Made by a program: the position numbers and the translations under genes. A stretch of DNA of 60,310 nucleotides, the filler included, from Sphacelaria rigidula (Eukaryota), in NCBI GenBank assembly GCA_964200075.2. It is 3 parts of 3 records of this genome, joined end to end, with 100 filler letters (N's around TTAATTAATTAA, not from the genome) between each part and the next. Parts side by side here need not be neighbours in the genome. Positions count along the whole stretch, not along the records: positions 40,279 to 60,310 come from CAXNAA020000579.1; 2 more parts are not named here. One strand, 5' to 3'. This document shows positions 34,448 through 57,235 of the stretch, piece after piece. How positions within the stretch are numbered: position 1 is the first letter of the stretch; every line of letters starts with the position of its first letter. The notes beneath the pieces were generated by a model. The model had not been told where the DNA came from, did not search any database, and saw only the letters and a program-made list of their open reading frames with translations.

Positions 34448-34495
<48 letters not shown>

Positions 34496-34558
34496 ACAAC
34501 ACGGAGTGCAGGCACCAGTGGACGGAATGTGGATGAGGCCGAGCGGGCATCCGCCTTC

Positions 34559-34597
<39 letters not shown>

Positions 34598-34599
34598 GC

Positions 34600-34630
<31 letters not shown>

Positions 34631-36331
34631 TCATTCCGGTCCTAGTTCTCAGGGTAGTGGCGTGGCGGCTCGCGGCAAGCCGCCAAGCATGGGGCACGCG
34701 AATCGGGTATCTCCCACGTCTGGAGGGCTAGAGGATCCGAGGTCTCCGCCAAGGCAGAGGCGCGATTCGATCACCGAACAATCCGAAGCTGTAAGTGTTA
34801 CGAATGCGTTGCTATCTCGACGAAGTAACGTGGATGGGAAAAAGAAGGCTGCAAAAAAGAAGACTGCAAGGGCAGGTCGGGTAGGATACACCCGATTTTT
34901 TGGTATTTTGAAAAGTGGCACATCACCTGCCTAGGTCAGTTACACCGACTTTTATGGGCTTTAGAGGGGGGGGGGACAAAACCACTGGGCTGGCTGCTGC
35001 TGTGGGCATGGATCGGAACTCCACTTTTCGAAATACCACAATATCAGGTATACCTTACCCGACCTGCCCTTGGAAGGTTGTTGTCGCGCATGTCATGCTT
35101 TGCCAAGAGACTTGGGTCTTATCGCACTTCACAACTCCAACAGCTACGCTACCCCCCGCCCCCCTGGTCCGCCCCCCTGGTCCGGCGAGCATCCGACGTG
35201 CTCCGTCCCGGCTTTGTAGGGGCGGACCTCCGATGGAGTTAGCGTCGGTTGGCGATGACGCTATGAAACACGCCGCTCACTGAATAAGCTAGGCAACCAG
35301 CTTACCGATTTTTTTTTGCTCGCTTGCGTTTTTTTCGCGGTAACCATGATGATACTCAAGCTAGATCATGCTATGCAGCGTGGGAGAACCTCGACTCCGC
35401 ACAATGGGGATTGTCGTACTACGTAGTGTTTGAATGGTGAGGCACCCATGAGGCAGTGTATAAGCCGGGATTGTCTGTGGAAGTGGTGATGCAAGAAAAT
35501 GAAGCAACTCATTGTAGGCTGCCATCAAAATGCAAGATAATCAGTACGCTTCGACCAAGCAATCTTAGCAGGATGCAGCTTACCCTTCAAGCGACTCGCT
35601 GAACACAGCACGGCGCTTCGCGCTTGATGATTCAGTACGAGCCTGGTCCGACGAAAACCCGGCGTGCTCCGTTCCGCCTTTGTAGGGGTGCGAGGTTAAC
35701 GGTCTTATGATGATGGCGTGCAAGATCATGTGCACCCCCATCCCCCGCCACCTCTTTTCCTGATGGCAACGCTCCCTTTGTTACAGTCGGCCGCGAAGGG
35801 TCAAGCCGCAAAAAATTTGCACTGGCGTCGCGAGAGCCTCGGCTCAGTCCTCGGTGCCGGCGGGATGGCGCCGATGGGCGGCCCTAGTCAGAGCCAGGGT
35901 CCATGGCAAGGAAAGACTTGGCCTCCGCCAGGACAAGGTGGGGGACAAGTGTTGTCCGCAGCAGCATCAGGAGCAGGAGGGGGGCCGGGCCCAGGCCCAG
36001 GGACGGGAGGGCGAGGGCCGCAGCAGGGACAGCAAACCCCACCGCAGGGTATGCCAAGTCCAAGTTCCGGCCGCGGGCAGGTGTCACCACAGGCACAGCA
36101 GCAACAGGGTATGCATGGCAGCGGTGGCAGCGGTGGTGGGCAGGGGCAACCAGGCGGACGAGGCGGCGGTTTGCAAGGGCAGCAGCAGGGTGTTGGTATG
36201 CAGGGGGGGGCGGGGCGAGGGGGGCACGGGGGTGGCGCACCCCCTCCTCCCGTACATCAAAACCAGCGGGCGAATAACGCGCTTGCTAAACCGCGGGGGT
36301 CGATAAATCTTGGGACCCAGCAGCCCCAGCC

Positions 36332-36374
<43 letters not shown>

Positions 36375-39300
36375 CAACCAGGAATGCAGGTGTGTGTTCA
36401 GGGAGGCGGTGCGATGGGTGGGATGGGCAAGTAGAGGGAAACAGAGTCGGTGACGGGGCGTGACGGTACATTATCCGGAAACGTACGAGAGCGGGGGCCG
36501 GAACGGTATGGCAAGGTGAACTATGCTGCTTTGGGGTAGGAGTAGAGGATCAGGGGCTGCCGCGCTTGCCGTATATGTGTCCCCGTTGTTTGCTGGTTGA
36601 CGTGTTAGATCGTATGTGTCCAGATGGGCGTTGTTGTGTCAAGCAAAGGGTGTGCTAGTTTTCATTCTCGGCTGCGCGACGGTATAAGTCAAGTTGTGAC
36701 AAACGACTTCTTGTAATCGAATTGGCGGGACTGGGCGAATTCGTCATTTTCGGGCCGAACGACTGAACCTCCATTTTCGTTCTTGCTCCTGTTGCCGCTG
36801 CCTTTGCTCGTATAATACGCACACATCACTGAAAAAAACTGCTGATCTTCGACTTGGGGTGGGGGGGTGCACCAGTATGGTCAACACGTACCGAACCGTT
36901 CGGTGTGGTCTTCGGGAATACTCTCCCTTCGTAACCGTCCGCTTTAGGCGAGCTGCACGTCCTGGTGTAATCTACTTGTGGTGGGTTTGGGATGGCCCCG
37001 CCTCTTCACGCTCTTGTGTCTTCCTTTTTTTTATCGTGCGGACCATATGAGGAAATATCTTGTCATATTAGTCACCGTCGAAGGCTACGAGCAGCTTTGT
37101 ATGCCCTGGTCGTGACGGCCTGGTGCGGTAGTTGTGTTTCCGTTGCTATACTGCTCGAAGCAAATCGAGTGAGCACTGCTGTGCGAATCACGTCTCACGA
37201 CTCGATTCTCTGTTTTTCATACGCTTTTTGTAACTTAATTTCAGGTTTCATGGATAGCGTGAACACTCTGTTTGATGGCAAAAATCACTGCTGAACTGTG
37301 ATGGAAAACGTGTTGATTTTGCCGTGAGTAGGATCGCCGACTCCGTCACCCTTGTAACTTTGTAAGTCCGTAAACCTCGATAACTGTAGCTGACTTCGAG
37401 TGTCAACGAAGGATGGCACGGTGCTCATCACTTCGAGAACAGGGCTATTCCACCCGCCATACCACGATCAACCTTGCCCCCCGGACTCCCAGCCACCGAT
37501 CACCTGCCTACCGCCGCCGACCTGCCGCACGGCTAGACGCCTCACCCGCACATGGCCCTTGCCATATTACCTGGTCACTACACCAAGTTCAGGCTCCCCC
37601 CACATAGCCACTGACTTCCGCGACCGCAAACACGTGCGCCCGCGACGCTCCTCTCCGTCCGTTGTTGTCTTTTCCCTGCGCCCGATTTTTTGGAAATGGT
37701 AGTGGCGTTTGTAGTGGTGTTGCTTCTCGTCCACTTTTCATGTTGGGGTGTGTTCGAAGGAAGTAGTACTCGTTTTGTTAATAACTCATGTACCTCCCCC
37801 TCCCCTCTATGGCGTCGGCGAAAACCCGACGTGCTCCGTCCCGGCTTTGTAGGGGCGGACCCCTATGGGATTGGCGTCGGTTGGCGATGACGCTGTGAAA
37901 CACGCCACTCACGGCGTAAGCTAGGCAACCCACTTTTTTTGTTTCCGGTAACCATGGTGCTGGTCGAGCTAGATCATGTTGTGCAGCGTGGGAGAACCTC
38001 GACTCCGCACAATGGGGATTGTCGTACTACGTAGTGTTTGAATGGTGAGGCACCCATAAGGCAGTGTATAAGCCGGGATTGTCTCTGGAAGCGGTGATAC
38101 CAGAAAATGAAGCAACTCATTGTAGGCTGCCATCAAAATGCAAGATAATCAGTACGCTTCGGGCCGAGCAATCTTAGCAGGATGCAGCTTACCCTTCAAG
38201 CGACTCGCTGAACACAGCACGGCGCTTCGCGCTTGATGATTCAGTACGAGCCTGGTCCGGCGAAAACCCGGCGTGCTCCGTTCCGCCTTTGTAGGGGTGC
38301 TAGGTTAACGGTCTCAAGATGATGGCGTGCAAGACCATGAATACACCCCCTCTGTGGCGTCGCCATCTGTATTTGCTTGTTTCAACGTGCCTACTTGTGA
38401 TTAGGTGGGCGTGATCTGCTCTTGTTTTGTCACTTTTCCACTTGCATGCAACTAACCATCCCGTAACCCTTCCCGTCCCGTGCCATTCCCTCTTATTTTT
38501 TCTACTTCTTTGTCCGTTCTACAGTCTGGTAAGTCAACGAGCAAAGGTAGTCACCGCCGGACGGACTCGGGAGAACGCCTCAGTGGAGAACGCCTCAGTG
38601 GTATCGCCGCATCGCTCGCCAGCAGCAACAAGGCCAGCGCCGCTGCTGCCGCTGCTGCCAGCAGCAGTGGCAATAACACGAATGGCGCCGCAAACGGTGT
38701 GCCCAGCGGCACAGCGGTCGGAGTCGGGGTCGGGGTTGGCGGGGGGGGCGGCGGCGGCAGCGGCGGGGGGGGGGGGGGGGGACCAAGGACCGCCGGCCCC
38801 CACGGCGGGGGGGGGTGAGGGGGGAAAGGCGCTGTGGAGGNNNNNNNNNNGGGGGGGGGGGGGGGGGGGGGGGGTGGGGGGGGGGGGGGGGGGGGCGGGG
38901 GGGGGGGGGGGGGGGGGAGCACCAAAGACCATCGCGCCCAACAGCGTAGGAGGTTTCGCTGCTAATCCCTTCGGCCCGCGACGGCATTCGTCGTTCGTTC
39001 CAGCTCTGTCTCAGATGCCTCCCGTGAATCAGATTCAGGGCCAGGCGGCAGGCGGCGGCGGTGGAGGGGTGAGTGGTGGAGCTGGGTCGGGGTCTTCGAA
39101 TGTAGGTAGCGGCGGTAACAGCGGCGCTGGCGGCGGGAGTGTCGGAAATAAAAATCACGTCGTTCATGGCGGACAGATGAAGAGCCACGGCAGCGGGGGT
39201 AGCGGAGGAGCTGGTGGCGCTGGCAGTGTCGGGAAAGGCGGGGGTGAAGGACCCGGGGGGGGGGGTGGGCAGGGAGCCGGGGGAAAGCAACACGAGATGA

Positions 39301-39515
39301 TGCAGGCGGCGATCATGAATTCATTTGGGAGGTCGTCAAACGGTCTATCGTCTAGCCCTTCGGTGGGGAGTGGGGTGGTTATTCCGGGCGCAGGAGGCGT
39401 GGGAGTTGCGGGTGCAGGCGGAGCAGGCAGTGGGGATCATGCGGAGGATGTCGGGCGAGGGCAGGGCAAGGGTGTTGGGGGCGTTGCGGGGAGTGGGGGA
39501 TCGTGGTGCCTATAA
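20641..39515 (+). CDS. Six-exon gene for a low-complexity (Gly/Ser/Gln/Ala) protein with a central coiled coil; exons 20641-21026, 31317-32574, 33451-33624, 34116-34790, 35787-36389, 38525-39515
   Basis: All five introns are GT..AG with matching phases (2,0,0,0,0), giving a continuous frame: ...GGHAR|SPLSTP...LELKR|VRQRHR...LQQLQ|DSGFP...QSEA|SAAKG...PGMQ|SGKST...GSWCL*. Heptad segment RLSTLIDQLKDEI...ENKKLHQILQQLQ. The frame switch in exon 6 falls in a poly-G/N low-quality stretch (38740-38920). Confidence 0.8.
23941..24272. repeat. Three tandem ~100-110-bp hairpin (foldback) units in intron 1
   Basis: Unit 1 CCCTTCGACCGCG...GATCTGTTGAATCGG-loop-CCGATTCGACAGATC...CGCGGTCAAAGGG (23941-24049); related units at ~24056-24153 and ~24160-24270 share the TCAGGTG(T)AAA loop. 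Confidence 0.75.
28110..28315. mobile_element. 206-bp hAT-type MITE, copy 2
   Basis: Long near-perfect TIRs (CAAGGGCAGGTCGAGTAGAGTATACTCAATTGCGG) and a perfect 8-bp TSD AAAAACTT (28102-28109 / 28316-28323). Confidence 0.93.
34159..34630 (+). repeat. CAG/CAA trinucleotide tracts encoding poly-Gln (exon 4; another at ~36330-36380)
   Basis: Runs of CAG/CAA in frame with the predicted exons. Confidence 0.9.
34867..35072. mobile_element. 206-bp hAT-type MITE, divergent subfamily (copy 3)
   Basis: TIRs CAAGGGCAGGTCGGGTAGG...CCTTACCCGACCTGCCCTTG; 8-bp flanks gaagactg/gaaggttg (6/8); same length as copies 1 and 2 but a different interior. Confidence 0.85.
35177..35735. mobile_element. ~550-bp dispersed non-coding repeat, copy A (intron 4)
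   Basis: Highly similar to 37816-38345; a ~45-bp direct repeat (CCTGGTCCGGCGA..CCGrCGTGCTCCGTyCCGsCTTTGTAGGGG) occurs at the start and again near the end. Confidence 0.85.
37816..38345. mobile_element. ~530-bp dispersed non-coding repeat, copy B (intron 5)
   Basis: Homologous to copy A in the same orientation; flanked by a ~16-bp direct repeat CCCCTCT(A/G)TGGCGTCG (~37802-37817 and ~38347-38362), consistent with a long TSD. Confidence 0.85.
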
Positions 39516-40178: not shown

Positions 40179-40278
40179 NNNNNNNNNNNNNNNNNNNNNN
40201 NNNNNNNNNNNNNNNNNNNNNNTTAATTAATTAANNNNNNNNNNNNNNNNNNNNNNNNNNNNNNNNNNNNNNNNNNNN
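40179..40278. other. Artificial contig spacer (assembly gap)
   Basis: 100 bp N..TTAATTAATTAA..N, same design as 20042-20141. Confidence 0.97.
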
Positions 40279-41680
40279 CCCCCGTCCCCCGCCCCGAAAA
40301 GGAGGCGTGGTCCATGGGCACACAACAAAAGAAAACAACACAAAAAAACCCCCCCCCCCCCCCCCCCCCTGCGTTCCTTCGCATTGCTCCCATGATCGAT
40401 GGCTATCACCATGGACCAGATCAAAAGAAACCTTTTGAGAGCGTGAATTCGTCCTGCCCCCAGCTCTGGAGGTGAACCTGTTGATCTCCACGGTGGGTAA
40501 TCTGGGCCTTGCATTCATATTTCGGGTCAAACTTATGTCATTGCCCAACAGATAACTCGCCCTGAACGTGGTTATATATTATATATAGATGGGCAAAGCC
40601 AAACAACCTCGGCACACCAGACGGCAAATCGTATATTTTTGCAGAGTTTCGGTGAACGCTAGAAGAGTTGAGAAGAAAAGAGGTCACCTTGCAGCGCGTG
40701 TCAGGGGTGTGGACGTGTATGTGTCGCCTGAAAAGGGAGGGTGTCGCTTGAACGCACGATTTGTTCGTTCAAATGATTTCGTGTTTAATCAAGTGTATCC
40801 ACGTAGAAAAAAAGGAAGCGAGGATGATTTGTCTATAATCGATGAAATTTCGTCGAGCAGCCCGACAAAGTTCGGGGGTGTACCCCCCCGATTCGCATCT
40901 CTAACAGTTCTACCGTCACCCGCATTCACCGTTTTGGCCAAGCGCTTAATACGACGGCGTTTTGTTTTATCTCGTTTGTAATGTTTTCGATGTTCAAATA
41001 GATGATGCAAGCGCGCCGGAAACCAACACTGATGGGTCTTGTACCCAACGTGGTTGACGGAAACACCGTGTGCAAGTAGGCGTGACTGTTGGGGTTGACT
41101 CAACAGGATGTTGATCCCCTCGCATTACCTTCCCGTTGTATGACAGTAACATCAGCTGAAATCTTCCCGCCAACGACGGGTCACCTGAAACGAATAACCA
41201 ACCAGTCGAAAATCGGGTCTGCATGGAGTGAGCCCGTAGATGAAGACGCATCAACCATTGTTTCTCCTGGACTTCAAACGCCACAATCCGACTTCGCCAC
41301 CAGTCGGGACGCACAAACGTGTTCCGTGTAAAGTAGGACTGAATACACATTTCCGAAACTTCCAAAGCTTGGTATCCTCCCTAACAACCCAGTACGTTAG
41401 ATGCGAACGAACTTGACGTATGCAGAAGCGTTTCCCTCATCAATGGAACACGATCACATCATTTGATGCACACGGTCAAAGCTGGTGTACTTTATGTACC
41501 GTCGTGCCTACCACGCACATGGCAAACAGAACTCGTCCAATTTCAACTGCAGTCCGCTGCTTTTCACGTGACTGCAACATTTCTCGTGCCATTTGGACAT
41601 ATCCTGTTCGTCAACCGATTATAAAATGGTCTTACTAATCACATTGTCACTTTTTTCCGTATGATTTAGAGATGGTCGTG

Positions 41681-42139
41681 TCAAAGTTTACTAGTGTCTG
41701 CTTCAGAAATGGTCTCGCGAGAGCTTGTTCCACGGCTAAAGTTGTTTTGGTTCACAGTGAGATACCCCCGCACCTTATTGTCGTTCAGAACATCCTTCTG
41801 TACGGCCGACCGGTTCCGCCGCGGCACATTGCTGTCGTCCACGACAAAGTCCATCGACAACGACTTCTTGAAGTCAATGGGTGTTGGCAGGCAGTGGACA
41901 ACACGCATGATGAGGAAATTGTTCTCAGCACCACTCGCGCACGATACCATCTCCAACGTTTCCTCCACCATTATGGGGCCAATGTTCGAGGGAAGGCTCC
42001 CGCCAGGAGCAGAAAGGGTAACGCCGAAGTCGCTCTTAACAAACGGGGTTTCCCGAGGAGATGCGCTGTCCAGGAGGATCCTCGGCCTGTTTTCAACTGT
42101 GAACGAGGCGGGAAAATCGCAAGCAATGATCGAACACAT
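41681..42139 (-). CDS. ZU5-like domain coding segment, probably the C-terminal part of the LRR-array gene (possibly pseudogenised)
   Basis: FGVTLSAPGGSLP and VVHCLPTPIDFKKSLSMDF match the two ZU5 signature stretches (GVxLxIPxGAL; PVVxCxPxGxxFxKPVxL). GYLTVNQNNFSRG sits where the ZU5 'HFS' motif is expected. Same strand as, and downstream of, the LRR exons; flanking frames contain stops. Confidence 0.6.
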   Translation of the reverse strand: MCSIIACDFPASFTVENRPRILLDSASPRETPFVKSDFGVTLSAPGGSLPSNIGPIMVEETLEMVSCASGAENNFLIMRVVHCLPTPIDFKKSLSMDFVVDDSNVPRRNRSAVQKDVLNDNKVRGYLTVNQNNFSRGTSSRETISEADTSKL

Positions 42140-42661
42140 CGAATGAGAATGCGGCTATGACAGTTGAGTCATACGAGTGATTTTTTCAATACAAAGGGCG
42201 AACTGACTCCAGTCATACAACTAGTTTCTCAAATCGGACCCTCACTGTACTTGCAGGGCCCCCTCCTGATGGAGACACAAGCGAATCAAGCACACAGATA
42301 AACACACTTTTTGCCACCACCCACCACCTGCTCAGTACATGTTACCCGATGCCGGCATGGAGAGTTTTGTGGACTTTCAGACGTGGAACTGATAGCCCCC
42401 AACGCACGTGGTAGCCGCTTTCATGGCATTTTCGATGAGGTTGAGGATTCGGACAGGCACAACGACAACTACCCGATTTGTCCCTCGTACGCCGGCGAGC
42501 GATGTCTCTCATACCCGGCCAAGCGCAACACGGCTTGCATATTGCATGATACATTTTGCAGTGTGTGGTGCAGTACTGTAGCGGGCATTCAGTACATAAA
42601 ATGCTGCACTGGGTCTATCGTGCGACCACGGCTGGACCCATGGATGGTCAGTTAATGTGCG

Positions 42662-42662
<1 letters not shown>

Positions 42663-42697
<35 letters not shown>
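42663..42697. repeat. (CAAT)n microsatellite
   Basis: About 8 tandem CAAT units. Confidence 0.85.
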
Positions 42698-42700
<3 letters not shown>

Positions 42701-43410
42701 TGGGTACTGTTTATTACAGTGCTGCTGCTGAATCGATGTATTCAGTTCTCGCTCGCGGACGCACTGCTAACTATTCCATGACACAAACCCCTACGGTATT
42801 GCTCGAAGGCTTCGTGTACAGATGCATTGCTGTTCTAGTACTACAATAGATACTACGCAGCCATCTCCGAAGAACTCCTCGTTAACCATCACCCGTTTGG
42901 GGCTTCCAACCTGAATAACGGCAAACTTACCGCTATTTTAGTCACATGCCCTGGAAGCAGCATCATGAGGTCTTGCGGCCACATGCCACTCTGTCGAGAG
43001 TCCTACTGAATCAATTGTTTTAATTCCTACTTCGCAACCTGCTGCTGGCGAAGAATTTGTACCGGCGAATATAGAGTCCAGCGTGCGGCCTGACAGCTCT
43101 CCTCCAGATCAAACGAGGCGTCCGGTCGGCGCCCAATGTTTACATTTTGTCTATTGCCACCACCCACACGCCAATATGAAGGATATTTTCGTCTTTCGCG
43201 GCGACTCGACCAAGAGGTACGTGATGAATCAAACTCTCGAAATACAAGACGTGTTACATGCACCTCATATCGCCCACCAGAGGGTACATGAAATATAGAA
43301 TCCTCCATAGCGACGTGACTCATGTAGCGCCAGCAACGAAACCGAGGAATGGCATCATTGCTCGGCCATGGCATCGCGATTCAACAAATATACCCCTCCC
43401 GTCGTCTCAC

Positions 43411-46400
43411 CACTCGGCTGCTTTCCCTCGAGGTTGCTCAGGTTTGAGCCAACGAGCTTTTCTAGTCCCGGCGGAATGGCACCTGTGGTGACGACACGCG
43501 ATAGTTGCGATGTGCGGTGGAATCTCAGGACAGCAACCCACAACACACACCCACGATCTAAGTCCTCTACTCACGCACAGGCAGTAGCGCCGTTTCACAG
43601 ACCGGACGAGGCCGTGGTCTAAAATATCGATCAACAATACGCGTGTTGCATGCACGTCCATGACGACATGACTCATAACCCTACGGCGTCCAGGCACGGT
43701 TTGTTCTCGATCATCGCATTTCACGACATGACCTGTCCCGTGTCTCACCCCTCAGCTGATTCCCTTGGAGATTGAGAGATTCCAGCGAACGGCACTTCCC
43801 CAGCTCCGGCGGAATGACACCTGTGGCGGCGACAAGCGATAGTACAAATGTGTGGTGGTTCTCAGGGGACAAGAAACCACAGCAAGCACGCAAGCTTCAT
43901 GTCCCCTACACACGCCTTGGCAGGACTACTCTTCTACAAGCCGGGCGGCCCTGTGCTCTACCAGGTTCATCAAGCATGCTCGCCAGCACAACGTGCCCGC
44001 ACTGGTGCTCGTGGGAAGGTCTCTCCAAGAGGTACATGAGCTATCGAGTGCTCCAATCACAACACGCGAATGGCGTGCACGTCCACGGCAACGTGACTCA
44101 TAACCATCGGCCGCCCAAGCACGGTTTCGCTTGTCGACCATCGCGCTTCACCACATGACCTGTCCCGCGTCTCACCACTCAGTTGATTCCCCTGAAGATT
44201 GAGGGATCTCATCAAACGGCACTCCCCCAGCTCCGACGGAATGGCACCTATGGCGGAGACACGCGATACAACAAATGTGTAATGGAGGCTCGGGAGAGGA
44301 ACCCACAACTAACACGGAAGCTTCACGTTCCCTACTCCCGCGCTTGGAGAGCTACTCTTGACAACAACCCCGGCAGACCCGTGCTCCACCAGGCCCAGTC
44401 AGCATGCCCGCCGGTACAACGTGCTCGCACTGGTGCTCGTGGCAAGTGCTCTCTACCAGTGCGTCCCGTGTTTCGTTCCCCTACTCTGCAGGCTGCTGCT
44501 CGCTACGAAGGGATACTGGTGGACAGGTAAACGAGCGTGTGACCCGACAGCGCTGCCTCACTTCGAGCCAACGAGGCGACCAGTCCCCACGCAGTGTTGG
44601 CACTCCGACGACTGTCATCACACACACATGCGCACGTGCTTTGACTGTCTACTTCTGTCACGGAGACTGGACCAAGAGGTACATGAGCTATCGAGTCCCC
44701 CGATCACGACACGCGTGTTGCGTGCGCGTCCACGAAGACATGATTCATAACCCCAAAACGACCAGGCACGGTTTCGCTTCTCCACCATCGCGCTTCACCA
44801 CATGACCCGTCCCGCGTCTCACCACTCAGTTGATTCCCCTGAAGATTGACGGACCTAAGCTCACGGCATCTCCCCAGCTCCGGCGGAATGACACCTGTGG
44901 CGGAGACACGCGATACAACAAATGTGTTATGGAGTCTGGGGAGAGGCACCCACAACTGACACGGAAGCTCCACGTTCCCTACCCACGCGCTGGCAGGACA
45001 ACGCTTTCACCAGCCGGGCGGACCCGTGCTCCACCAGGCCCCGTCAGCATGCTCGCCGGTACAACGTGCTCGCACTGGTGCTCGTTGCAAGTGCTCTCTA
45101 CCAGTGCGTCCCGTGTTTCGTTACCCTACTCTGCAGCCCGCTGCTCGCTACGAAGAGATACTGGTGGACAGGTAAACGAGCGTGTGACCCGACAGCGCTG
45201 TCTCACTACGAGCCAACGAGGCGACCAGTCCCCACGCAGTGTTGGCACTGCGACGATTGTCATCACACACACATGCGCACGTGCTTCTATTGTCTACTTC
45301 TGTCACGGAGACTGGACCAAGAGATACATGAGCTATCGAGTCCTCCGATCACGACACGCGTGTTGCGTGTGCGTCCACGAAGACATGATTCATAACCCCA
45401 CACCGTCCAGGCATGGTTTCGCTTCTCGACCATCGCGCTTCACCACATGACCCGTCCCGCGTCTCACCACTCAGTTGATTCCCCTGGAGTTCGACGACTT
45501 CTAGCGAACCGCACTCCCCCAGCTCCGGCGGAATGGCACCTGTGGCGGAGACACGCGATACAACAAATGTGTAATGGAGGCTCCAGAGAGGAACCCACAA
45601 CTAACACGCAAGCTTCACGTTCCCTACCAACGCGCTGGCAGGAAAACGGTTTTGTCAGCCGGGCGGACCCGTGCTCCACCAGGCCCGGTCAGCATGCTCG
45701 CCGGTACAACGTCCTCGCACTGGTGCTCGTTGCAAGTGCTCTCTACCAGTGCGTCCCGTGTTTCGTTCCCCTACTCTGCAGCCTGCTGCTCGCTACGAAG
45801 GGATACTGGTGGACAGGTAAACGAGCGTGTGACCCGACAGCGCTATCTCACTTCGAGCCAACGAGGCGACCAGTTCCCACGCAGTGTTGGCACTCCGACG
45901 ACTGTCATCACACACACATGCGCACGTGCTTTGACTGTCTACTTCTGTCACGGAGACTGGACCAAGAGGTACATGAGCTATCGAGTCCTCCGATCACGAC
46001 ACGTGAATGGCGTGTGCGTCCACGAAGACATGATTCATAACCCCACACCGCCCAAGCACGGTTTCGCTCCTCCACCATCGCGCATCACCACATGACCCGT
46101 CCCGCGTCTCACCACTCAGTTGATTCCCCTGAAGATTGACGGACCTTAGCTCACGGCACTCCCCCAGCTCCGACGGAATGGCACCTGTGGTGGCGACACA
46201 CGATACAACAAATGTGTAATGGAGGCTCGGGAGAGGAACCCACAACTAACACGGAAGCTTTACGCCCCCTACTCACGCGCTTGCAGAGCTACTCTTGACA
46301 ACAACCCGGGCGGACCCGTGCTCTACCAGGCCCAGTCAGCATGCCCGCCGGTACAACGTGCTTGCACTGGTGCTCGTGGCAAGTGCTCTCTACCAGTGTA

Positions 46401-49400
46401 TCCCGTGTTTCGTTCCCCTACTCTGCAGGCCGCTGCTCGCTACGAAGGGATACTGGTGGACAGGTAAACGAGCGTGTGACCCGACAGCGCTATCTCACTT
46501 CGAGCCAACGAGGCGACCAGTTCCCACGCAGTGTTGGCACTTCACCGAATATCACACACACATGCACACGTGCTTCTATTGTCTACTTCCGTCACGGGGA
46601 CTGGACCAAGAGGTACATGAGCTATCGAGTCCTCCGATCACAACAAGCGTGTTGCGTGCGCGTCCGCGCAGCCATAATTCATAACCCGACACTGCACAGG
46701 CACGGTTTCGCTTTTCGACCATCGCGCTTCACCACATGACCCGTCCCGCGTCTCACCCCTTAATTGATTCCCCTGAAGATTGACGGACCTTAGCTTACGG
46801 CACTTCCCCAGCTCCGGCGGAATGGCACCTGTGGCGAAGACACGCGAAGCCATAACTGTGTTATGGAGTCTCGGGAGAGGAACCCACAACTAACACGAAA
46901 CATCCACGTTCCCTACCCACGCGCTGGCAGGGCAACTCTCTACAAGCCGGTCGGACCCGTGCTCCACCAGGCCCAGTCAGCATGCCCGCCGGTACAACGT
47001 GCTCGCACTGGTGCTCGTGGCAAGTGCTCTCTACCAGTGCGTCCCGTGTTCCGTTCCCTCTACTCTGCAGGCTGCTGCTCGCTACGAAGGGATACTGGTG
47101 GACAGGTAAACGAGCGTGTGACCCGACAGCGCTGTCTCACTTCGAGCCAACGAGGCGACCAGTACCCACGCAGTGTTGGCACTCCGCCGACTGTCATCAC
47201 ACACACATGCGCAGGTGCTTCTACTGTCTACTTCTGTCACGGAGACTGGACCAAGAGGTACATGAGCTATCGAGTCCTCCGATCACGACACGCGTGTTGC
47301 GTGCGCCTCCACGAAGACATGATTCATAACCCCACACCGCCCAAGCACGGTTCCGACTCTCGACCATCGCGCTCCACCACATGACCCGTCCCGCGTCTCA
47401 CCACTCAGTTGATTCCCCTGGAGTTCGACGATTTCTAGCGAACCGCACTCCCCCAGCTCCGGCGGAATGACACCTGTGGCAACGACACGCGATACAACGA
47501 ATGTGTCATGGAGTCTCCGGAGAGGAACCCACAACTGACACGGAAGCTCCACGTTCCCTACCAACGCGATGGCAGGACAACTCTTGACAACAACCCGGGC
47601 GGACCCGTGCTCCGCCAGGCCCAGTCAGCATGCCCGCCGGTACAACGTGCTCGCACTGGTGCTCGTGGCAAGTGCTCTCTACCAGTGCGTCCCGTGTTTC
47701 GTTACCCTACTCTGCAGCCTGCTGCTCGCTACGAAGGGATACTGGTGGACAGGTAAACGAGCGTGTGACCCGACAGCGCTGTCTCACTACGAGCCAACGA
47801 GGCGACCAGTCCCCACGCAGTGTTGGCACTCCGCCGACTGTCATCACACACACATGCGCACGTGCTTCTAATGTCTACTTCTGTCACGGAGACTGGACCA
47901 AAAGGTACATGAGCTATCGAGTCCTCCCATCACGACACGCCTGATGCGTGCGCGTCCGTGCAGACATGATTCATAACCCGACACTGCACAGGCCCGGTTT
48001 CGTTTCTCGACCATCGCGCTTCACCACATGACCCGTCCCGCGTCTCACCACTCAGTTGATTGCCCTGGAGTTCGACGATTTCTAGCCAACCGCACTTCCC
48101 CAGCTCCGGCGGAATGGCACCTGTGGCGGAGACACGCGATACAACAAATGTGCAATGGAGTCTCGGGAGAGGAACCCACAACTAACACGCAAGCTACACG
48201 TTCCCTACCAACGCGCTGGCAGGAAAACGGTTTTGTCAGCCGGGCGGACCCGTGCTCCACCAGGCCCGGTCAGCATGCTCGCCGGTACAACGTGCTCGCA
48301 CTGGTGCTCGTGGCAAGTGCTCTCTACCAGTGCGTCCCGTGTTTCGTTCCCCTTCTCATCAGCCTGCTGCTCGCTACGGAGGGATACTGGTGGACAGGTA
48401 ATGAGCGTGTGACCCGACAGCGCTGTCTCACTACGAGCCAACGAGGCGACCAGTCCCCACGCAGTGTTGGCACTCCCACGATTGTCATCACATACACATG
48501 CGCACTTGCTTCAATTGTCTACTTCTGTCACGGAGCCTGGACCAAGAGGTACATGAGCTATCGAGTCCTCCGATCACGACACGCGTGTTCCCTGCGCATC
48601 CGTGAAGCCATGATTTATAACCCCACACCGCCCAAGCACGGTTTCGCTTCTCGACCATCGCGCTTCACCATATGACCCGTCCCGCGTCTCACCACTCAGT
48701 TGATTCCCCTGGAGATTAAAAGACCTAAGCCATCGGCATTTCCCCAGCTCCGGCGGGATGGCACCTGTGGCGGAGACACGCGATACAACAAATGTGTTAT
48801 GGAGTCTCGGGAGAGGAACCCACAGATTACACGTAATTTCCACGTTCCCTACCAACGCGCTGGCAGGACAACTCTCTACAAGCCGGTCGGACCCGTGCTC
48901 CACCAGGCCCAGTCAGCATGCTCGCCGGTACAACGTGCTCGCACTGGTGCTCGTGGCAAGTGCTCTCCACCAGTGGGTCCCGTGTTTCGTTCCCCTACTC
49001 TGCAGCCTGCTGCTCGCTACGAATGGATACTGGTGGACAGGTAAACGAGCGTGTGACCCGACAGCGCTGTCTCACTTCGAGCCAACGAGGCGACCAGTCC
49101 CCACGCAGTGTTGGCACTCCGACGACTGTCATCACACACACATGCGCAGGTGCTTCTATTGTCTACTTCTGTCAGGAAGACAAGACTAACAGGTGCATGA
49201 GCTATCGAGTCCCCCGATCACGACACGCGTGTTGCGTGCGCGTCCACGAGGACATGATTCATAACCCCACCCGCACAGGCACCGTTTCGCTTCTCGACCA
49301 TCGCGCTTCACCACATGACCCGTCCCGCGTCTCACCACTCAGTTGATTGCCCTGGAGATTGACGATTTCTAGCGAACCGCACTTCCCCAGCTCCGGCGGA

Positions 49401-52400
49401 ATGGCACCTGTGGCAGCGACACGCAATGGGGCGGATGTGTGGTGGACACCTCGGGAAAGCAACCCACAACTTACACGCAAGCTCCACGTTCCCTACCCAC
49501 GCGCTGGCAGGACAACTCTTTCACCAGCCGGGCGGACCCGTGCTCCACCAGGCCCAGTCAGCATGCTCGCCGGTACAACGTGCTTGCACTGGTGCTCGTG
49601 GCAAGTGCTCTCTACCAGTGCGTCCCGTGTCTCGTTCCCACAGTCTGCGGCCTGCTGCTCGCTACGAAGGGATACTGGTGGACAGGTAAACGAGCGTGTG
49701 ACCCGACAGCGCTGTTTTACTTCGAGCCAACGAGGCGACCAGTCCCCACGCAGTGTTGGCACTCCGCCGACTGTCATCACACACACATGCGCACGTGCTT
49801 TGACTGTCTACTTCTGTCACGGAGACTGGACAGAAAGGTACATGAGCTTTGGGGTCCTCCGATCACGACACGCGTGGTGCGTGCGCGTCCACGAAGACAT
49901 GATTCATTACCCCACACCACCCAGGCACGGTTTCGCTTCTCGACCATCGCGCTTCACGACATGACTCATCCGCGTCTCACCACTCAGTTGATTCCCCTGG
50001 AGATCGACGGAATGTAGCATAACGCACCCCCCCAGCTCCGGCGGAATGACACCTGTGGCGGAGACACGCTATACAACAAATGTGTTATCGAGTCTCGGGA
50101 GAGGAACCCACAACTTACACGCAAGCTCCACGTTCCCTACCCACGCGCTGGCAGGACAACTCTGTACAAGCCGGGCGGACCCGTGCTTTACCAGGCCCAG
50201 TCAGCAAGCTCGCCGGTACAACGTGCTCGCACTGGTGCTCGTGGCAAGTGCTTTCCACCGGTGCGTCCCATGTTCCGTTCCCCTACTCTGCAGATTGCTG
50301 CTCGCTACGAAGAGATACTGGTGGACAGGTAAACGAGCGTGTGACCCGACAGCGCTGTCTCACTTCGAGCCAACGAGGCGACCAGTCCCCACGCAGTGTT
50401 GGCACTCCGACGACTGTCATCACACACACATGCGCACGTGCTTCTCTTGTCTGCTTCTGTCACGGAGACTGGACCGAGAGGTACACGAGATATCGAGTCC
50501 TCCGATCACGACACGCGTGTTGCGTGCGCGTCCACGAAGACATGATTCATAACCTCAAACTGCCCAGGCATGGTTTCGCTTCTCGACCATCGCGCTTCAC
50601 CACATGACCCGTCCCGCGTCTCACCACTCAGTTGATTCCCCTGAAGTTGGACGATTTCTAGCGAACCGCACTCCCCCAGCTCCGGCGGAATGGCACCTGT
50701 GGCAGCGACACGCGATACAACAAATGTGTTATGGAGTCTCGGGAGAGGAACCCACAACTGACACGCAAGCTCGACGCTCCCCATCCACGCGCTGGCAGGA
50801 CAACTCTGTACAAGCCGGTCGGACCCGTGCTCCACCAGGCCCAGTCAGCATGCCCGCCAGTACAACGTGCTCACATTGGTGCTCCTGGCAAGTGCTTTCT
50901 ACCAGTGCGTCCCGTGTTTCGTTCCCCTACTCTGCAGGCTGCTGCTCGCAACGAATGGATATTGGTGTAAACGAGCGTGTGACCCGACAATGCTGTCTCA
51001 CTTCGAGCCAACGAGGCGACCAGTCCCCACGCAGTGTTGGCACTCCGCCGACTGTCATCACACACACATGCGCATATGCTTCTATTGTCTACTTTTGTCA
51101 CGGAGACTGGACCAAGTGGTACATGAGCTATCGAATCCTCCGATCACGACACGCGTGTTGCGTGCGCGTCCATGATGACATGATTCATAACCGAGTCATC
51201 CTACGATAGGGGGGGTGGGGTGTTTCGGGCCATTCGTTGCTCGAAATTTCGAGTGAGATCGTCGTTGAATGCCGCAACGGTTGTTCGGACGAGCTTCTTG
51301 TGGATCAATAACGCTCATCCATACTGTCTGATACCGATTGGAACCAAATACTAAAGCACCGCAAGTGTGGAAGGATGTCTGACACACTTATGAGCCTTTT
51401 CTTTCTTGCAACCAAATACCCCCCCCTTTCGTAGGATGGCTTAACCCCACACCGCCCAAGCAAGGTTTCGCTTTTCGACCATCGCGCTTCACCACATGAC
51501 CCGTCCCGCGTCCCACCACTCAGTTGATTCCCCTGGAGTTCGACGATTTCTAGCCAACCGCACTTCCCCAGCTCCGGCGGAATGGCACCTGTGACGGAGA
51601 CACGCGATACAACAGATGTGTTATGGGCGTCTCGAGAGAGGAAACCACAACTAACACGCAAGCTACACGTTCCCTACCGACGCGCTGGCAGGACAACTCT
51701 CTACAAGCCGGTCGGACCCGTGCTCCACCAGGCCCAGTCAGCATCCCCGCCGGTACAACGTGCTCGCACTGGTGCTCGTGGCAAGTGCTCTCTACCAGTG
51801 CGTCCCGTGTTTCGTTACCCTACTCTGCAGCCTGCTGCTCGCTACGGAGGGATACTGGTGGACAGGTAAACGAGCGTGTGACCCGACAGCGCTGTCTCAC
51901 TTCGAGCCAACGAGGCGACCAGTCCCCACGCAGTGTTGGCACTCCGCCGACTGTCATCACACACACATGCGAGGGTGCTTCTATTGTCTGCTTCTGTCAC
52001 GGAGACGGGACCAAGAGGTACTAAGCTATCGAGTCCTCCGATCACGACACGCGTGTTGCGTGCGCGTCCGTGAAGCCATGACTCATAACCCACACCGCCC
52101 AAGCACCGTTCCGTTTCTCGACCATCGCGCTTCACCACATGACCCGTCCCGCGTCTCACCACTCAGTTGATTCCCCTGGAGATTGACGGACCTCAGCCAA
52201 CGGCACTCCCCCAGCTCCGGCGGAATGGCACCTGTGGCGGAGACACGCGATACAACAAATGTGTAATGGAGTCTCGGGAGAGAAAACCACAACCAACACG
52301 CAAGCTCCACGTTCCCTACCAACGCGCTGGCAGGACAACTCTCTACAAGCCGGTCGGACCCGTGCTTTACAAGGCCCAGTCAGCATGCCCGCCGGTACAA

Positions 52401-55400
52401 CGTCCTCGCACTGGTGCTCGTGGCAAGTGCTCTCTACCAGTGCGTCCCGTGTTTCGTTACCCTACTCTGCAGCCTGCTGCTCGCTACGAAGAGATACTGG
52501 TGGACAGGTAAACGAGCGTGTGACCCGACAGCGCTGTCTCACATCAAGCCAACGAGGCGACCAGTCCCCACGGAGTGTTGGCACTCCGACGATTGTCATC
52601 ACACACACATGCGCAGGTGCTTCTATTGTCTGCTTCTGTCACAGAGACGGGACCAAGAGGTACATGAGCTATCGAGTCCTCCGATCACGACACGCGTGTT
52701 GAGTGCGCGTCCGTGAAGACACGATTCATAACTCCACACCGCCCAGGCACGGTTTCGCTTCTCGACCATCGCGCTTCATCACATGACCCGTCCCGCGTCT
52801 CACCACTCAGTTGATTCCCCTGGAGATTGACGAATACCAACATAACGCATTTCTCCAGCTCAGGGGGAATGGCACCTGTGGCAGCGACACGAGACAAAAC
52901 AAATGTGTGGTGGGCGCCTTGGGGGAGCAACCCACAACTAACACGAGAGCTCCACGTTTACTACCAACGCGCTGGCAGGACAACTTTCTACAAGCCGGGC
53001 GGACCCGTGCTTCACCAGGCCCAGTCAGCATGCCCGCCGGTACAACGTGCTCGCACTGGTGTTCGTGGCAAGTGCTCTCTACCAGTGCGTCCCGTGTTTC
53101 GTTCCCCTACTCTGCAGCCTGCTGCTCGCTACGAAGGGATACTGGTGGACAGGTAAACGAGCGTGTGACCCGACAGCGCCGTTTCACTTCGAGCCAACGA
53201 GGCGACCGTTCCCCAAGGAGTGTTGGCACTGCGCCGACTGTCATCACACACACATGCGCACGTGCTTCTATTGTCACGGAAACTGGACCAAGAGATACAT
53301 GAGCTATCGAGTCCTCCGATCACGACACGCGTGTTGCGTGCGCCTCCACGAAGACATGACTCATAACCCCACACCGCCCAAGCACGGTTTCGCTTCTCGA
53401 CCATCGCGCTTCATCACATGACCCGTCCCGCGTCTCACCACTCAGTTGATTCCCCTGTAGATTGACGGAATGTAGCTCAACACACTGCCCTAGCTCCGGC
53501 GGAATGGCACCTGTGGCAGCGACACGCGATACAACAAATGTGTTATGGAGTCTCGAGAGAGGAAACCACAACCAACACGCAAGCTCCACGTTGCCTATCC
53601 GCGCGCTGGCAGGACAACTCTCTACAAGCCGGTCGGACCCGTGCTCCACCAGGCCCAGTCAGCATGCCCGCCGGTACAACGTGCTCGCACTGGTGCTCGA
53701 GGCGAATGCTCTCCACCAGTGCGTCCCGTGTTTCGTTCCCCTACTCTGCAGGCTGCTGCTCGCTACGAAGGGATACTGGTGGACAGGTAAACGAGCGTGT
53801 GACCCGACAGCGCTGTCTCACTTCGAGCCAACAAGGCGACCAGTCCCCACGGAATGTTGGCACTCCGCCGATTGTCATCACACACACATGCGCACGTGCT
53901 TCAATTGTCCACTTCAGTCACGGAGACTGGACCAAGAGGTACATGAGCTCTTGAGTCACGACACGCGTGTTGCGTGCGCGTCCACGAGAACATGATTTAT
54001 AACCCCACACCCCCCAGGCACGGTTTCGCTTCTCGACCATCGCGCTTCACCACATGACCCGTCCCGCGTCTCACCACTCAGTTGATTGCCCTGGAGTTCG
54101 ACGATTTCTAGCGAACCGCATTCCCCCAGCTCCGGCGGAATGACACCTGTGGGAACGACACGCGATACAAGGAATGTGTCATGGAGTCTCGGGAGAGGAA
54201 ACCACAACTAACACGCAAGCTCCACGTTGCCTATCCACGCGCTGGCAGGGCAACTCTCTACAAGCCGGGCAGACCCGTGCTTCACCAGGCCCAGTCAGCA
54301 TGCCCGCCGGTACAACGTGCTTGCACTGGTGCTCGTGGCAAGTGCTCTCTACCAGTGCGTCCCGTGTTTCGTTCCCCCTACTCTGCAGCCTGCTGCTCGC
54401 TACGAAGGGATACTGGTGGACAGGTAAACGAGCGTGTGACCCGACAGCGCTGTCTCACTTCGAGCCAACGAGGCGACCAGTCCCCACGCAGTGTTGGCAC
54501 TCCGCCGACTGCCATCACACACACATGCGCGGGTGCTTCTATTGTCTACTTCTGTCACGGAGACTGGACCAAAAAGGTACATGAGCTATCGACTCCCCCG
54601 ATCACGACACGCGTGTTGCGTGCGCGTCCGTGAAGACATGATTCATAACCCCACACCGCCCAAGCACGGTTTCGCTTCTCGACCATCGCGCTTCACCACA
54701 TGACCCGTCCCGCGTCTCACCACTCAGTTGATTCCCCTGGAGATTGACGGACCTTAGCTCACGGCACTTCCTCAGCTCCGGCGGAATGGCACCTGTGGCG
54801 AAGACACGCGATACAACAAATGTGTTATGGAGTCTCGGGAGAGGCACCCACAACCAACACGCAAGCTACACGTTTCCTACCAACGCGCTGGCAGGACAAC
54901 TCTTCTACAAGCCGGTCGGACCCGTGCTCTACCAGGCCCAGTAAGCATGCCCGCCGGTACAACGTGCTCGCACTGGTGCTCGTGGCGAACGCTCTCTACC
55001 AGTGGGTCCCGTGTTTCGTTCCCCTACTCTGCAGCCTGCTGGTCGGTACTTACGGATACTGGTGGACAGGCAAACGAGCGTGTGACCCGACAGCGCTGTC
55101 TCACATCAAGCCAACGAGGCGACCGGTCCCCACGCAGTGTTGGCACTCCACCGATTGTCATCATACACACATGCGCAGGTGCTTCTCTTGTCTACTTCTG
55201 TCACGGAGACTGGACCAAGAGGTACATGAGCTATCGAGTCCCCCGATCACGACACGCGTGTTGCGTGCGCGTCCACGAAGACATGATTCATAACCCCACA
55301 CGCACAGGCACCGTTTCGCTCCTCGACCATCGCGCTTCACCACATGACCCGTCCCGCGTCTCACCACTCAGTTGATTCCCCTGGAGTTCGACGATTTCTA

Positions 55401-56725
55401 GCGAACCGCACTTCCCCAGCTCCGGCGGAATAGCACCTGGGGCAGCGACACGCGATACAACAAATGTGTTGTGGAGTCTCGGGAGAGGAACCCACAACTA
55501 ACACGCAAGCTCCACGTCCCCCATCCACGCGCTGGCAGGACAACTCTCTACAAGCCGGTCGGACCCGTGCTCCACCAGGCCTAGTCAGCATGCCCGCCGG
55601 TACAACGTGCTTGCACTGGTGCTCGTGGCAAGTGCTCTCTACCAGTGCGTCCCGTGTCTCGTTCACCTACTCTGCAGCCTGCTGCTCGCTACGGAGGGAT
55701 ACTGGTGGACAGGTAAACGAGCGTGTGACCCGACAGCGCTGTCTCACTTCGAACTAACGAGGCGACCGGTCCCCACGCAGTGTTGGCACTCCGACGGTTG
55801 TCATCACACACACATGCGCACGTGCTTTGACTGTCTCTTTCTGTCACGGAGACTGGACAAAAAGGTACATGAGCTATCGAGTCCTCCGATCACGACACGC
55901 GTGTTGCGTGCGCGTCCACGAAGACATGATTTATAACCCCACACCACCCAGGCACGGTTTCGCTCCTCGACCATCGCGCTTCACCACATGACCCGTCCCG
56001 CGTCTCACCACTCAGTTGATTCCCTTGAAGATTGACGGACCTTAGCTCACAGCACTCCCCCAGCTCCGGCGGAATGGCCCCTGTGGCGGAGACACGCGAA
56101 GCCATAACTGTGTTATGGAGTCTCGGGAGAGGAAACCACAACTAACACGCAATTTCCACGTTCCCTACCAACGCGCTGGCAGGACAACTCTTCTACAAGC
56201 CGGTCGGACCCGTGCTCCACCAGGCCCAGTCAGCATGCCCGCCGGTACAACGTGCTCGCACTGGTGCTCGTGGCAAGTGCTCTCTACCAGTGCGTCCCGT
56301 GTTTCGTTCCCCTACTCTGCAGCCTGCTGCTCGCTACGAAGGGATACTGGTGGACAGGTAAACGAGCGTGTGCCCCGGAAGCGCTGTCTCACATCAAGCC
56401 AACGAGGCGACCAGTCCCCACGCAGTGTTGGCACTCCGCCGACTGTCATCATACACACATGCACACGTGCTTCCATTGTCTACTTCTGTCACGGAGACTG
56501 GACCAAGAGGTACATGAGCTATCGAGTCCTCCGATCACGACACGCGTGTTGCGTGCGCGTCCACGAAGACATGATTCATAACCCCACACCGCCCAAGCAC
56601 GGTTTCGCTCCTCGACCATCGCGCTTCACCACATGACCCGTCCCGCGTCTCACCACTCAGTTGATTCCCCTGGAGTTCGACGATTTCTAGCGAACCGCAC
56701 TCCCCCAGCTTCGGTGGAATGGCAC
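43411..56725 (-). CDS. LRR domain encoded one repeat per exon: 22 exons of 72 bp, consensus GAIPPELGxCxxLxxVxLQGNQLS
   Basis: Exons at 56654-56725, 56009-56080, 55365-55436, 54721-54792, 54075-54146, 53439-53510, 52804-52875, 52160-52231, 51517-51588, 50625-50696, 49981-50052, 49336-49407, 48693-48764, 48049-48120, 47402-47473, 46757-46828, 46113-46184, 45468-45539, 44823-44894, 44176-44247, 43749-43820 and 43411-43482 (divergent). Each is bounded by YAG| and |GTGAG (GTGGG once), is phase 1/1, stop-free, and fits the 24-aa plant-specific LRR class. No start exon found in the window. Confidence 0.93.
51193..51442. mobile_element. 250-bp MITE inserted in one intron of the LRR array
   Basis: TIRs GAGTCATCCTACGATAGGGGGG / CCCCCCTTTCGTAGGATGGCTT; duplicates AACC (51189-51192 / 51443-51446) of the empty-site consensus TGATTCATAACCCCACACC seen in sister units. 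Confidence 0.92.
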
Positions 56726-57169
56726 CTGTGGCAGCGACACGCGATACAACAAATGTGTTATCGAGTCTCGGGAGAGGAACCCACAACTAACGCGCAAGCT
56801 CCACGTTCCCTACCAACGCGCTGGCAGGACAACTTTCTACAAGCCGGTCGGACCCGTGCTCCACCAGGCCTAGTCAGCATGCCCGCCGGTACAACGTGCT
56901 TGCACTGGTGCTCGTGGCAAGTGCTCTCTACCAGTGCGTCCCGTGTCTCGTTCCCCTACTCTGCAGCCTGCTGCTCGCTACGAATGGATACTGGTGTAAA
57001 CGAGCGTGTGAGACTGGACCCAGAGGAACATGAGCTATCGAGTCCTTCAATCACGACACGCGTGTTGCGTGCACGTCCACGAAGATCTGAGTCATAGCAC
57101 TACGGCGCCCAGACACGGTTTCGCTTCTCGACCATCGCGCTTCACCACATGACCCGTCCCGTGTCTCTC

Positions 57170-57235
57170 CATTCAGTCGATTCCCCTGAAGATTGACGGC
57201 TTTTATCATACTCACTCCCCAAGCCACGTTTGCTC
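57170..57235 (-). pseudogene. Broken 23rd LRR exon at the 5' edge of the array
   Basis: Retains GTCAATCTTCAGGGGAATCGACTGAATG (VNLQGNRLN), but the donor is GAGAG instead of GTGAG and the GAIPPEL half with the acceptor is deleted. Confidence 0.8.

Follow-up and report, generated by a model that had tools for sequence, protein, structure and literature searches.

What lies behind the variable leucine-rich repeats (LRRs) of a brown-algal gene when no GTPase follows them? The question is raised by a locus on the minus strand of a 60,310-nucleotide (nt) stretch of the Sphacelaria rigidula genome (assembly GCA_964200075.2), which we call the window: three parts of three records joined end to end with 100 filler letters between each part and the next, of which positions 40,279 to 60,310 come from CAXNAA020000579.1 and hold the locus. 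The available text of two papers describes LRR-ROCO GTPases, NB-ARC-TPR proteins and LRR kinases as candidate immune receptors of brown algae (PMC3341825, PMC11378527). A first-pass annotation of the window had placed a ZU5-like domain downstream of an array of shuffled LRR exons and had read the gene as PIDD-like rather than ROCO, in a copy that would not cleave itself. On our analysis, the region from 41.7 to 57.2 kb on the minus strand is probably the 5′ part of a single expressed brown-algal gene in which shuffled LRR exons are spliced onto a divergent ZU5-like domain.

An expressed mRNA joins LRR exons to a conserved downstream exon

Eight sequencing runs from two studies were found, none of them recorded as RNA. 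Four (X1 to X4) were labelled "RNA?" by guess, and X1, X2 and X3, together with the DNA-like run X5, were compared over positions 40300-43900. Each of X1-X3 gave one contig, of 1830, 1819 and 1965 nt at depths of 75.4, 77.8 and 84.3, respectively. These contigs cover 43746-43821 (43746-43816 in X2), 43411-43479 and 41774-42096 without a mismatch, and the 266 and 1314 nt that they skip are bounded by GT..AG on the minus strand (CT..AC as read on the plus strand). Depth in X1-X3 is 62-84 over exon 41774-42096 and 0 over 42115-42598. Neither splice joint occurs in X5, the contigs of which (40788-42641 and 42704-43826) are colinear with the window. Because depth is confined to exons and the GT..AG joints are absent from X5, we took X1-X3 as RNA. 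The three joined exons form one open frame (...LQGNQLRG AIPPGLEKLVGSNLSNLEGKQPS VENRPRILLDS...) and thus, with the GT..AG joints, place the LRRs directly on the ZU5-like segment with nothing between them. In the expressed mRNA, the ZU5-like exon follows the coding sequence of at least two LRRs, so that the in-silico equivalent of a reverse transcription PCR from an LRR exon into this segment, the check proposed in the first-pass annotation, is positive in the contigs of all three runs. The 1314-nt intron contains a short repeat at 42599-42719, in which (CAAT)n occupies 42663-42697; many contigs end at this repeat, and depth over it is extreme, about 1100-1200 in X1-X3 and about 120,000 in X5.

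The ZU5-like exon sits in a stop-to-stop open reading frame (ORF) at 41681..42154 on the minus strand (157 residues, ...FTVENRPRILLDSASPRETPFVKSDFGVTLSAPGGSLPSNIGPIMVEE...VVHCLPTPIDFKKSLSMDFVVDD...VLNDNKVRGYLTVNQNNFS...*) that ends in TGA at 41681. The limits originally given to the domain, 41681-42265, were too wide: the RNA-type contigs and homology both bound the exon at 41774..42096, with a cag acceptor before TTGAAA and a gtgcgg donor after AATAAG. When four full-length relatives were searched against the window by tblastn, the only match was 41771-42076 (E 5.6e-24 to 4.0e-14). A family hidden Markov model (HMM) built from relatives, with the window sequence excluded, picked out the ORF at E=7e-34 among 2512 six-frame window ORFs, the runner-up having E=2.3. 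The exon is open throughout, and the C, P and F columns that are invariant in the family are conserved in it. This is a real conserved coding segment, far beyond chance, and it most likely represents the N-terminal two thirds of a ZU5-like domain.

Identity of the domain downstream of the repeats

A phmmer search of the ORF against 1.84 billion representative proteins returned 22 matches at E<=1e-3, nine of them at E<=1e-10 (best 1.4e-18). We set aside P0017, a low-complexity repeat protein in this set. The named relatives belong to Ectocarpus sp. ("unnamed protein product [Ectocarpus sp. 12 AP-2014]"), Cladosiphon okamuranus and Nemacystus decipiens, and among the relatives found the family is, as far as seen, confined to brown algae of the order Ectocarpales.

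These relatives supply the link to ZU5. Pfam ZU5 (PF00791) matches P0022 with 23.1 bits, above the curated cut-off of 21 (E=9.4e-5), and five more relatives below it: P0021 (19.2 bits), P0034 (17.5), P0033 (16.1), P0018 (13.5) and P0013 (13.2). All six matches fall in the segment homologous to the window exon, five of them within positions 2-81 of the 97 in the profile and that of P0018 at 49-81. No Pfam family other than ZU5 is matched by more than one of the 31 members of the family alignment A1 (ZU5: 5 of 31 at E<=1), and ZU5 is unmatched in six of the ten proteins of one Pfam scan and in seven of the eight of another. Aligned by hhalign, the subgroup that contains the window sequence (A3, 15 sequences) and that of P0022 (A4, 8 sequences) are related at 99.4% (E=6.7e-22, 80 columns). 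Membership in ZU5 is reached through relatives and not by a direct Pfam match of the ORF.

Two structural models were compared with PDB chains by a tool that sets its caution line at Z 8. For residues 66-214 of the AlphaFold model of the full-length relative P0003, in which block means of the predicted local distance difference test (pLDDT) are 56-85 over residues 91-210, 17 of 48,161 representative chains reach Z>=5. They include the ZU5 domain of AnkB (6m3q_E, Z 6.9, root-mean-square deviation (rmsd) 4.3, 122 aligned residues), a ZU5-ANK chain (3f59_A, Z 6.9, rmsd 3.8, 116 aligned), 3ud1_A (6.6), the FIIND of NLRP1 (6x6c_E, 6.3; 7crv_C, 6.1), CARD8 (5.5) and UNC5b (5.3), as well as GAIN domains at Z 5.1-5.7. 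The model of the window exon itself (107 residues, pLDDT 75.4, predicted TM-score 0.55) gave 48 chains at Z>=2, with ZU5 chains at ranks 1, 2, 3 and 5 (3ud1_A 4.6, 6m3q_E 4.3, ZO-1 2kxr 4.2, 3f59_A 4.0) and NLRP1, CARD8, UNC5b, GAIN and the Nup98 autoproteolytic domain (Z 2.2) at lower ranks. In the ESM Atlas, the language-model neighbours of P0003 residues 64-330 are ZU5, UPA and FIIND clusters (score 0.94, 170 of 256 features).

Several points weigh against a ZU5 domain or against the gene as we read it: (i) Pfam finds no family at E<=10 on the window ORF, and its ZU5 likeness is therefore not directly detectable by HMMER. (ii) A phmmer search of the ORF against the PDB returned only unrelated chains (lambda-crystallin and similar, E 0.42-1.8), and the family profiles A1 and A2, searched against PDB sequences, returned no ZU5 (two unrelated matches for A1, E 0.18 and 0.96, and none for A2). 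(iii) Foldseek against the PDB found nothing at E<=0.001 for the models of either P0003 or the window exon; for P0003, the chain 6m3p_E of an AnkG/spectrin complex appears only at rank 21 with E 0.67. (iv) The mean pLDDT of the P0003 model is poor (49.5), and an unrelated dextranase ties with the best ZU5 chains at Z 6.9. (v) Every Z is below 8, and the tool warns that such scores can reflect a common beta arrangement; thus, the fold match alone is insufficient for ZU5 identity. (vi) In the ESM Atlas the window exon alone scores 0.76, and its ZU5 cluster, at rank 2, is only a lead. (vii) The labelling of X1-X3 as RNA is a guess, and all three runs come from one study. (viii) The full-length annotated relatives P0003, P0012 and P0023 have no LRRs. 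(ix) Only 30 nt of the transcript beyond the exon are seen, so that the HF[S/T] site of this gene (the family motif discussed below), its beta-rich domain and its tail are unseen, and self-cleavage is something that we infer.

The negative Pfam, PDB-profile and Foldseek results, with the sub-threshold Z scores and the presence of GAIN, dextranase and Nup98 chains in the rankings, favor an alternative in which a lineage-specific beta-sandwich only looks like ZU5, either generically or by lying nearer to GAIN or the Nup98 autoproteolytic domain, so that the C-terminal module of the LRR gene would be of another kind. We consider this unlikely, because the homologous segment matches Pfam ZU5 in six relatives, with P0022 above the curated cut-off, and no other Pfam family recurs; ZU5 chains come first in two separate models; the language-model neighbours are ZU5, UPA and FIIND; and the HF[S/T] motif of the family is placed as in ZU5 and FIIND proteins. 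Taking the fold match, the Pfam matches of relatives, hhalign and the language-model neighbours together, we regard true homology of the domain to ZU5 as very probable. As in the first-pass annotation, a ZU5 is the most likely identity of the domain, in a divergent form.

The LRR array and the brown-algal family

Upstream of the ZU5-like exon, a pattern scan recovered an array of canonical LRR exons, with matches from 43753 to 56720 (Table 1). All 21 are 72 nt long with a cag or tag acceptor, a gtgaga or gtggga donor and no stop codon. Their start-to-start spacing is 427-892 nt, 18 of the 20 distances being 635-647 and the other two 427 and 892, and 18 of the 20 introns are 563-575 nt long. 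Tandem Repeats Finder did not detect the array, the period of which exceeds 500. In the available text of Zambounis et al. 2012 (PMC3341825), the type I LRR exon of brown algae is 72 nt long and encodes one 24-residue repeat, GxxPxxLxxxxxLxxLxLxxNxLx; the 21 array exons agree with this definition in length, intact splice sites and repeat pattern. The same text counts 46 loci, neither ROCO nor kinase, that have type I LRR exons and other domains not described in it, and the window locus may be among them. Splicing was seen in contigs for the last array exon only (43746-43821), and most or all of the other array exons are presumably used in the transcript as well.

Pairwise identity among the 18 array introns of 563-575 nt is 85.9-95.3% (mean 90.7%), and the mean among the 21 exons is 84.2%. 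Exon differences cluster at nucleotides ~24-45, which encode the xCxxLxxxx residues. Exons that vary more than introns are expected of diversifying selection or of patchy gene conversion at ligand-facing positions.

Table 1 Features of the locus
Feature	Position	Strand	Description
Candidate first coding exon (putative)	57169..57209	-	Partial LRR starting with Met, MIKAVNLQGNRLNG; read from ORF 57051..57233
Array of 21 canonical LRR exons	43749..56725	-	72 nt, phase-1, (A/V)IPPELGxCxxLxxxxLQGNQLSG; pattern scan
Degenerate LRR-like exon	43411..43479	-	69 nt, AIPPGLEKLVGSNLSNLEGKQPS; nearest repeat upstream of the ZU5-like exon; both of its joints are seen in X1-X3
ZU5-like exon	41774..42096	-	323 nt, 107 full codons, VENRPRILLDS...VLNDNK; RNA-type contigs and homology
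"NNFS" codons	41735..41746	-	Intronic, 28-39 nt past the donor of exon 41774-42096
Two 44-N scaffold gaps	40179-40222 and 40235-40278		N runs, just downstream of exon 41774-42096

In the stand-alone relatives (e.g., P0003 and P0023 of Ectocarpus sp. 12 AP-2014) the homologous exon is 35-51% identical, and the intron position after ..EYQV / ..NDNK is shared. After ..EYQ(V/I), the full-length relatives in alignment A1 continue as L(S/T)(K/R)Q.EDDPWQEM....VSV.WD....C(L/I/V)RA.(I/V).HF(T/S); short gene models diverge exactly at this point, which indicates a conserved intron. Beyond HF[S/T] the relatives have a beta-rich domain of ~100 residues, a Ser/Pro-rich linker and a conserved tail of ~55 residues. 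The tail (in P0003, P0010 and P0023-P0031) reads ..EEMVYSMTKVLPGRRRLTLL..NRKIKIEKNARALETYAMMLADFG.. or is of the ...YSMTK...ALETYAMMLADFG type, matches no Pfam family and is modelled with low confidence; it is a candidate for the effector part of the family. The gene models of stand-alone members have short N-termini other than LRRs, in contrast to the at least 22 LRR exons upstream in the window gene, and since the full-length annotated relatives have no LRRs, the LRR fusion may be rare or recent.

A word-indexed search for longer proteins containing the domain found none with the single exon and three with alignment A2. In Cladosiphon okamuranus, P0033 (1817 residues) combines an NB-ARC domain (204-425) and numerous TPRs with an internal ZU5-like segment, located at ~982-1100 and including IEHFTQF, and P0034 (2169 residues) has Ank repeats, Ion_trans and a C-terminal ZU5-like segment with HAY. 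In Nemacystus decipiens, P0032 combines FNIP repeats with a UAA transporter domain and carries a ZU5-like segment at its C-terminus. Merged gene models are likely, given that the TPR sequence of P0033 recurs beyond its ZU5-like part and that P0032 brings together unrelated domains. A genuine P0033 would place the ZU5-like module behind the other class of exon-shuffled receptor as well, and an NB-ARC-TPR-ZU5-like arrangement would parallel NLRP1.

The X1-X3 contigs run past 41774 with a loose end of at least 255 nt, leaving ~1357 nt (~1.36 kb) of contig. The first 30 nt of this continuation have no match in the window at up to 3 mismatches, and their 10 codons, in frame after ..LNDNK, read IFIKDEGGPW, resembling LSKQSEDDPW of the family. 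In the window, two C-terminal family HMMs, ct1 and ct2, gave best E values of 0.71 and 2, and tblastn with four relatives found nothing in frame downstream of the ZU5-like exon. What had been taken for a contig end is in fact a pair of scaffold gaps (Table 1), and the downstream exons, which would encode the second half of the ZU5-like domain with HF[S/T], the beta-rich domain and the tail, may lie in the gap at 40179-40278 or elsewhere. An ORF at 40994-41380 (-) was considered as the next exon and was not borne out by tblastn with relatives or by the family HMMs.

The youthful look of the array, with its closely similar introns, would also fit a different account, in which the LRR-to-ZU5-like transcript is a young and possibly non-functional chimera produced by chance splicing to a recently amplified LRR array; the lack of LRRs in full-length annotated relatives, the unassembled remainder of the gene and a retroelement integrase fragment just upstream (59806-60309) point the same way. 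Such a chimera seems to us improbable: the frame is kept over both joints, the exon is free of stops and retains the invariant C, P and F columns, and all 21 LRR exons keep their splice sites and open frames. Moreover, the contigs have depths of 75-84 in three samples with a ~1.36-kb continuation that begins in frame with the next-exon motif of the family, and variation is higher in the LRR exons than in their introns, at sites where exposure to a ligand is expected. We therefore retain a single gene with LRRs joined to a ZU5-like domain as the preferred reading.

The HF[S/T] motif and comparison with known receptors

Among 15 relatives that cover the corresponding strand, 14 have HF[S/T] (HFT in 12, HFS in two) and one has HAY. 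In relatives it lies ~45-50 residues beyond the ..NDNK / ..EYQV point, in the next exon, which is absent from the window. The supposed NNFS at the HFS position does not survive this comparison, since its codons are intronic and the HF[S/T] of the family is encoded by the next exon; the prediction of a non-cleaving His-to-Asn copy is therefore unfounded. It is very improbable that the ORF is instead read through to 41681, with NNFS replacing HFS in a non-cleaving PIDD-like protein: the stop-to-stop ORF does reach the TGA and contain NNFS, and a low-depth X1 record (153 nt, depth 4.4) covers 41609-41761, but in each of X1, X2 and X3 the main contig (depth 75-84) leaves the genome sequence at 41774 by splicing, and homology to every relative stops at 41771-41774.

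When the P0003 model is superposed on the N-terminal fragment of NLRP1, model residues 66..211 align with chain residues 1092..1212, and P0003 has H210-F211-S212. According to the available part of PMC11760013, NLRP1 is cleaved at S1213, between ZU5 and UPA. The end of the alignment and the position of the tripeptide thus place the HF[S/T] of the family at the FIIND self-cleavage position. An autopeptidase role of ZU5 is described in the available part of PMC8195603. By analogy, self-cleavage of the ZU5-like module is a serious possibility here, although on balance we lean slightly against it.

The absence of a P-loop noted in the first-pass annotation is upheld at motif level: the six-frame translation of the whole window contains three GxxxxGK[ST] motifs (15407, 19690 and 28992), none of them in 40279-60310. 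ORFs from the array to the end of the window match no Pfam family except an integrase fragment at 59806-60309. The protein thus probably has no GTPase or STAND NTPase, although no transcript marks where the gene starts and an NTPase farther upstream, beyond the window end, is conceivable. An ordinary ROCO gene is ruled out by the direct splicing of the last LRR-like exon to the ZU5-like exon and by the lack of Walker A.

Animal PIDD1 is an LRR-ZU5-ZU5-UPA-death domain protein. The window gene resembles it in that N-terminal LRRs are followed directly by a ZU5-type domain in one polypeptide, as the spliced contigs and open frame indicate, with no NTPase, and its relatives share the HF[S/T] tripeptide at the end of ZU5. 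It differs in its LRRs, which are plant-type 24-mers with one shuffled exon each, in a ZU5 sequence similarity that is at the detection limit, and in the C-terminus of its relatives, which consists of the beta-rich domain, the Ser/Pro linker and the ~55-residue tail after one ZU5-like domain. Pfam found no Death, UPA or second ZU5 domain at E<=1 in the 31 members of A1, nor at E<=10 in P0002, P0003, P0010 and P0012. The proposal of a PIDD-like rather than ROCO architecture is thus partly supported: LRRs and a ZU5-like domain are present with no GTPase between them, but the likeness to PIDD is loose, since relatives show one ZU5-like domain, no death domain and a different C-terminus.

The FIIND proteins NLRP1 and CARD8 offer a second comparison. 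The fold match of P0003 to the NLRP1 ZU5 fragment (Z 6.1-6.3) ends at the cleavage-site residue, LRRs lie directly upstream as they do in NLRP1, and FIIND clusters are among the language-model neighbours of P0003. In contrast, the gene region lacks NACHT and Walker A, no CARD was found in the relatives, and the motif is HF[T/S], mostly with Thr. The domain that follows HF[S/T] (P0003 residues 223-323) finds only unspecific small beta folds at Z 4-5, and its likeness to UPA is a lead from ESM Atlas neighbours only.

With the LRR-ROCO genes of brown algae, as described in the available text of PMC3341825 and PMC11378527, the locus shares 72-nt LRR exons of one repeat each, symmetrical phase and tandem amplification together with introns; it differs in having no ROC-COR and in that its last LRR exon is spliced straight toward the ZU5-like exon. 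The gene is thus not ROCO, as it has no ROC-COR; not PIDD1, as its relatives have one ZU5-like domain and no death domain; and not an NLRP1-type NLR, as it has no NACHT or CARD. Overall, its working would be most like that of an LRR sensor plus a FIIND-like module.

Such a protein might work as follows. At least 22 tandem single-LRR exons, of type I and of the exon-shuffling kind, would be spliced in frame to the 323-nt exon, where a highly divergent ZU5-like domain would begin with its first ~107 residues. Judging from relatives and from the first 10 codons of the continuation, the following exons would supply the last ZU5 strands ending in HF[T/S], then a beta-rich and possibly UPA-like domain of ~100 residues, the Ser/Pro-rich linker and the conserved tail of ~55 residues. 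The variable LRR solenoid would bind the ligand, and the ZU5-like module might cleave itself between F and S/T, as in PIDD1 and the FIIND of NLRP1 and CARD8. The C-terminal fragment could then stay attached without a covalent bond and be freed as a signal or effector once a ligand binds or the N-terminal part is degraded.

In animals, self-cleavage and release of a C-terminal fragment underlie the PIDDosome and the NLRP1 and CARD8 inflammasomes. An expressed gene in which a ZU5-type module is coupled to hypervariable, exon-shuffled LRRs suggests a second output logic for brown algae, and ZU5/FIIND-type signalling would extend to stramenopiles. A wider scheme is conceivable but rather doubtful, in which a FIIND-like self-cleaving module of brown algae (a ZU5-like domain with HF[T/S], a UPA-like beta domain and a new effector tail) is placed behind several sensor scaffolds: the LRR array here, perhaps NB-ARC-TPR in P0033 and perhaps the ankyrin-repeat ion channel of P0034. 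If true, it would amount to a "cleave, hold and release" trigger of immunity or cell death, either independent of animal PIDD1 and NLRP1 or sharing ancient roots with them. In the literature library searched, no paper joins "ZU5" with "brown alga" or "Ectocarpus", and none of the brown-alga papers listed by a broader search mentions ZU5 or FIIND.

Other features of the window lie around this gene. The candidate first coding exon, at ~57169-57209, is followed by the usual start of an array intron. Just upstream of the LRR gene, the integrase-core fragment at 59806-60309 (-) (rve, E=1.3e-4, below cut-off) is truncated by the end of the window, and an ORF at 59090-59461 (-) looks chromodomain-like by eye and has no Pfam match. 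A degenerate copia-type retroelement occupies 8388-11093 (+); its ORFs match Pol_BBD (E=1.4e-8), rve (E=2.6e-6, below cut-off) and RVT_2 (E=3.3e-28) and are broken by stops. Long GC-rich ORFs at 31147-36434 and 38415-39515 (+) carry poly-Q, poly-A and poly-G/Gly-rich low-complexity tracts; examples are 488 residues at 31147-32613, the sole one tested against Pfam and without a matching family, and 366 residues at 38415-39515.

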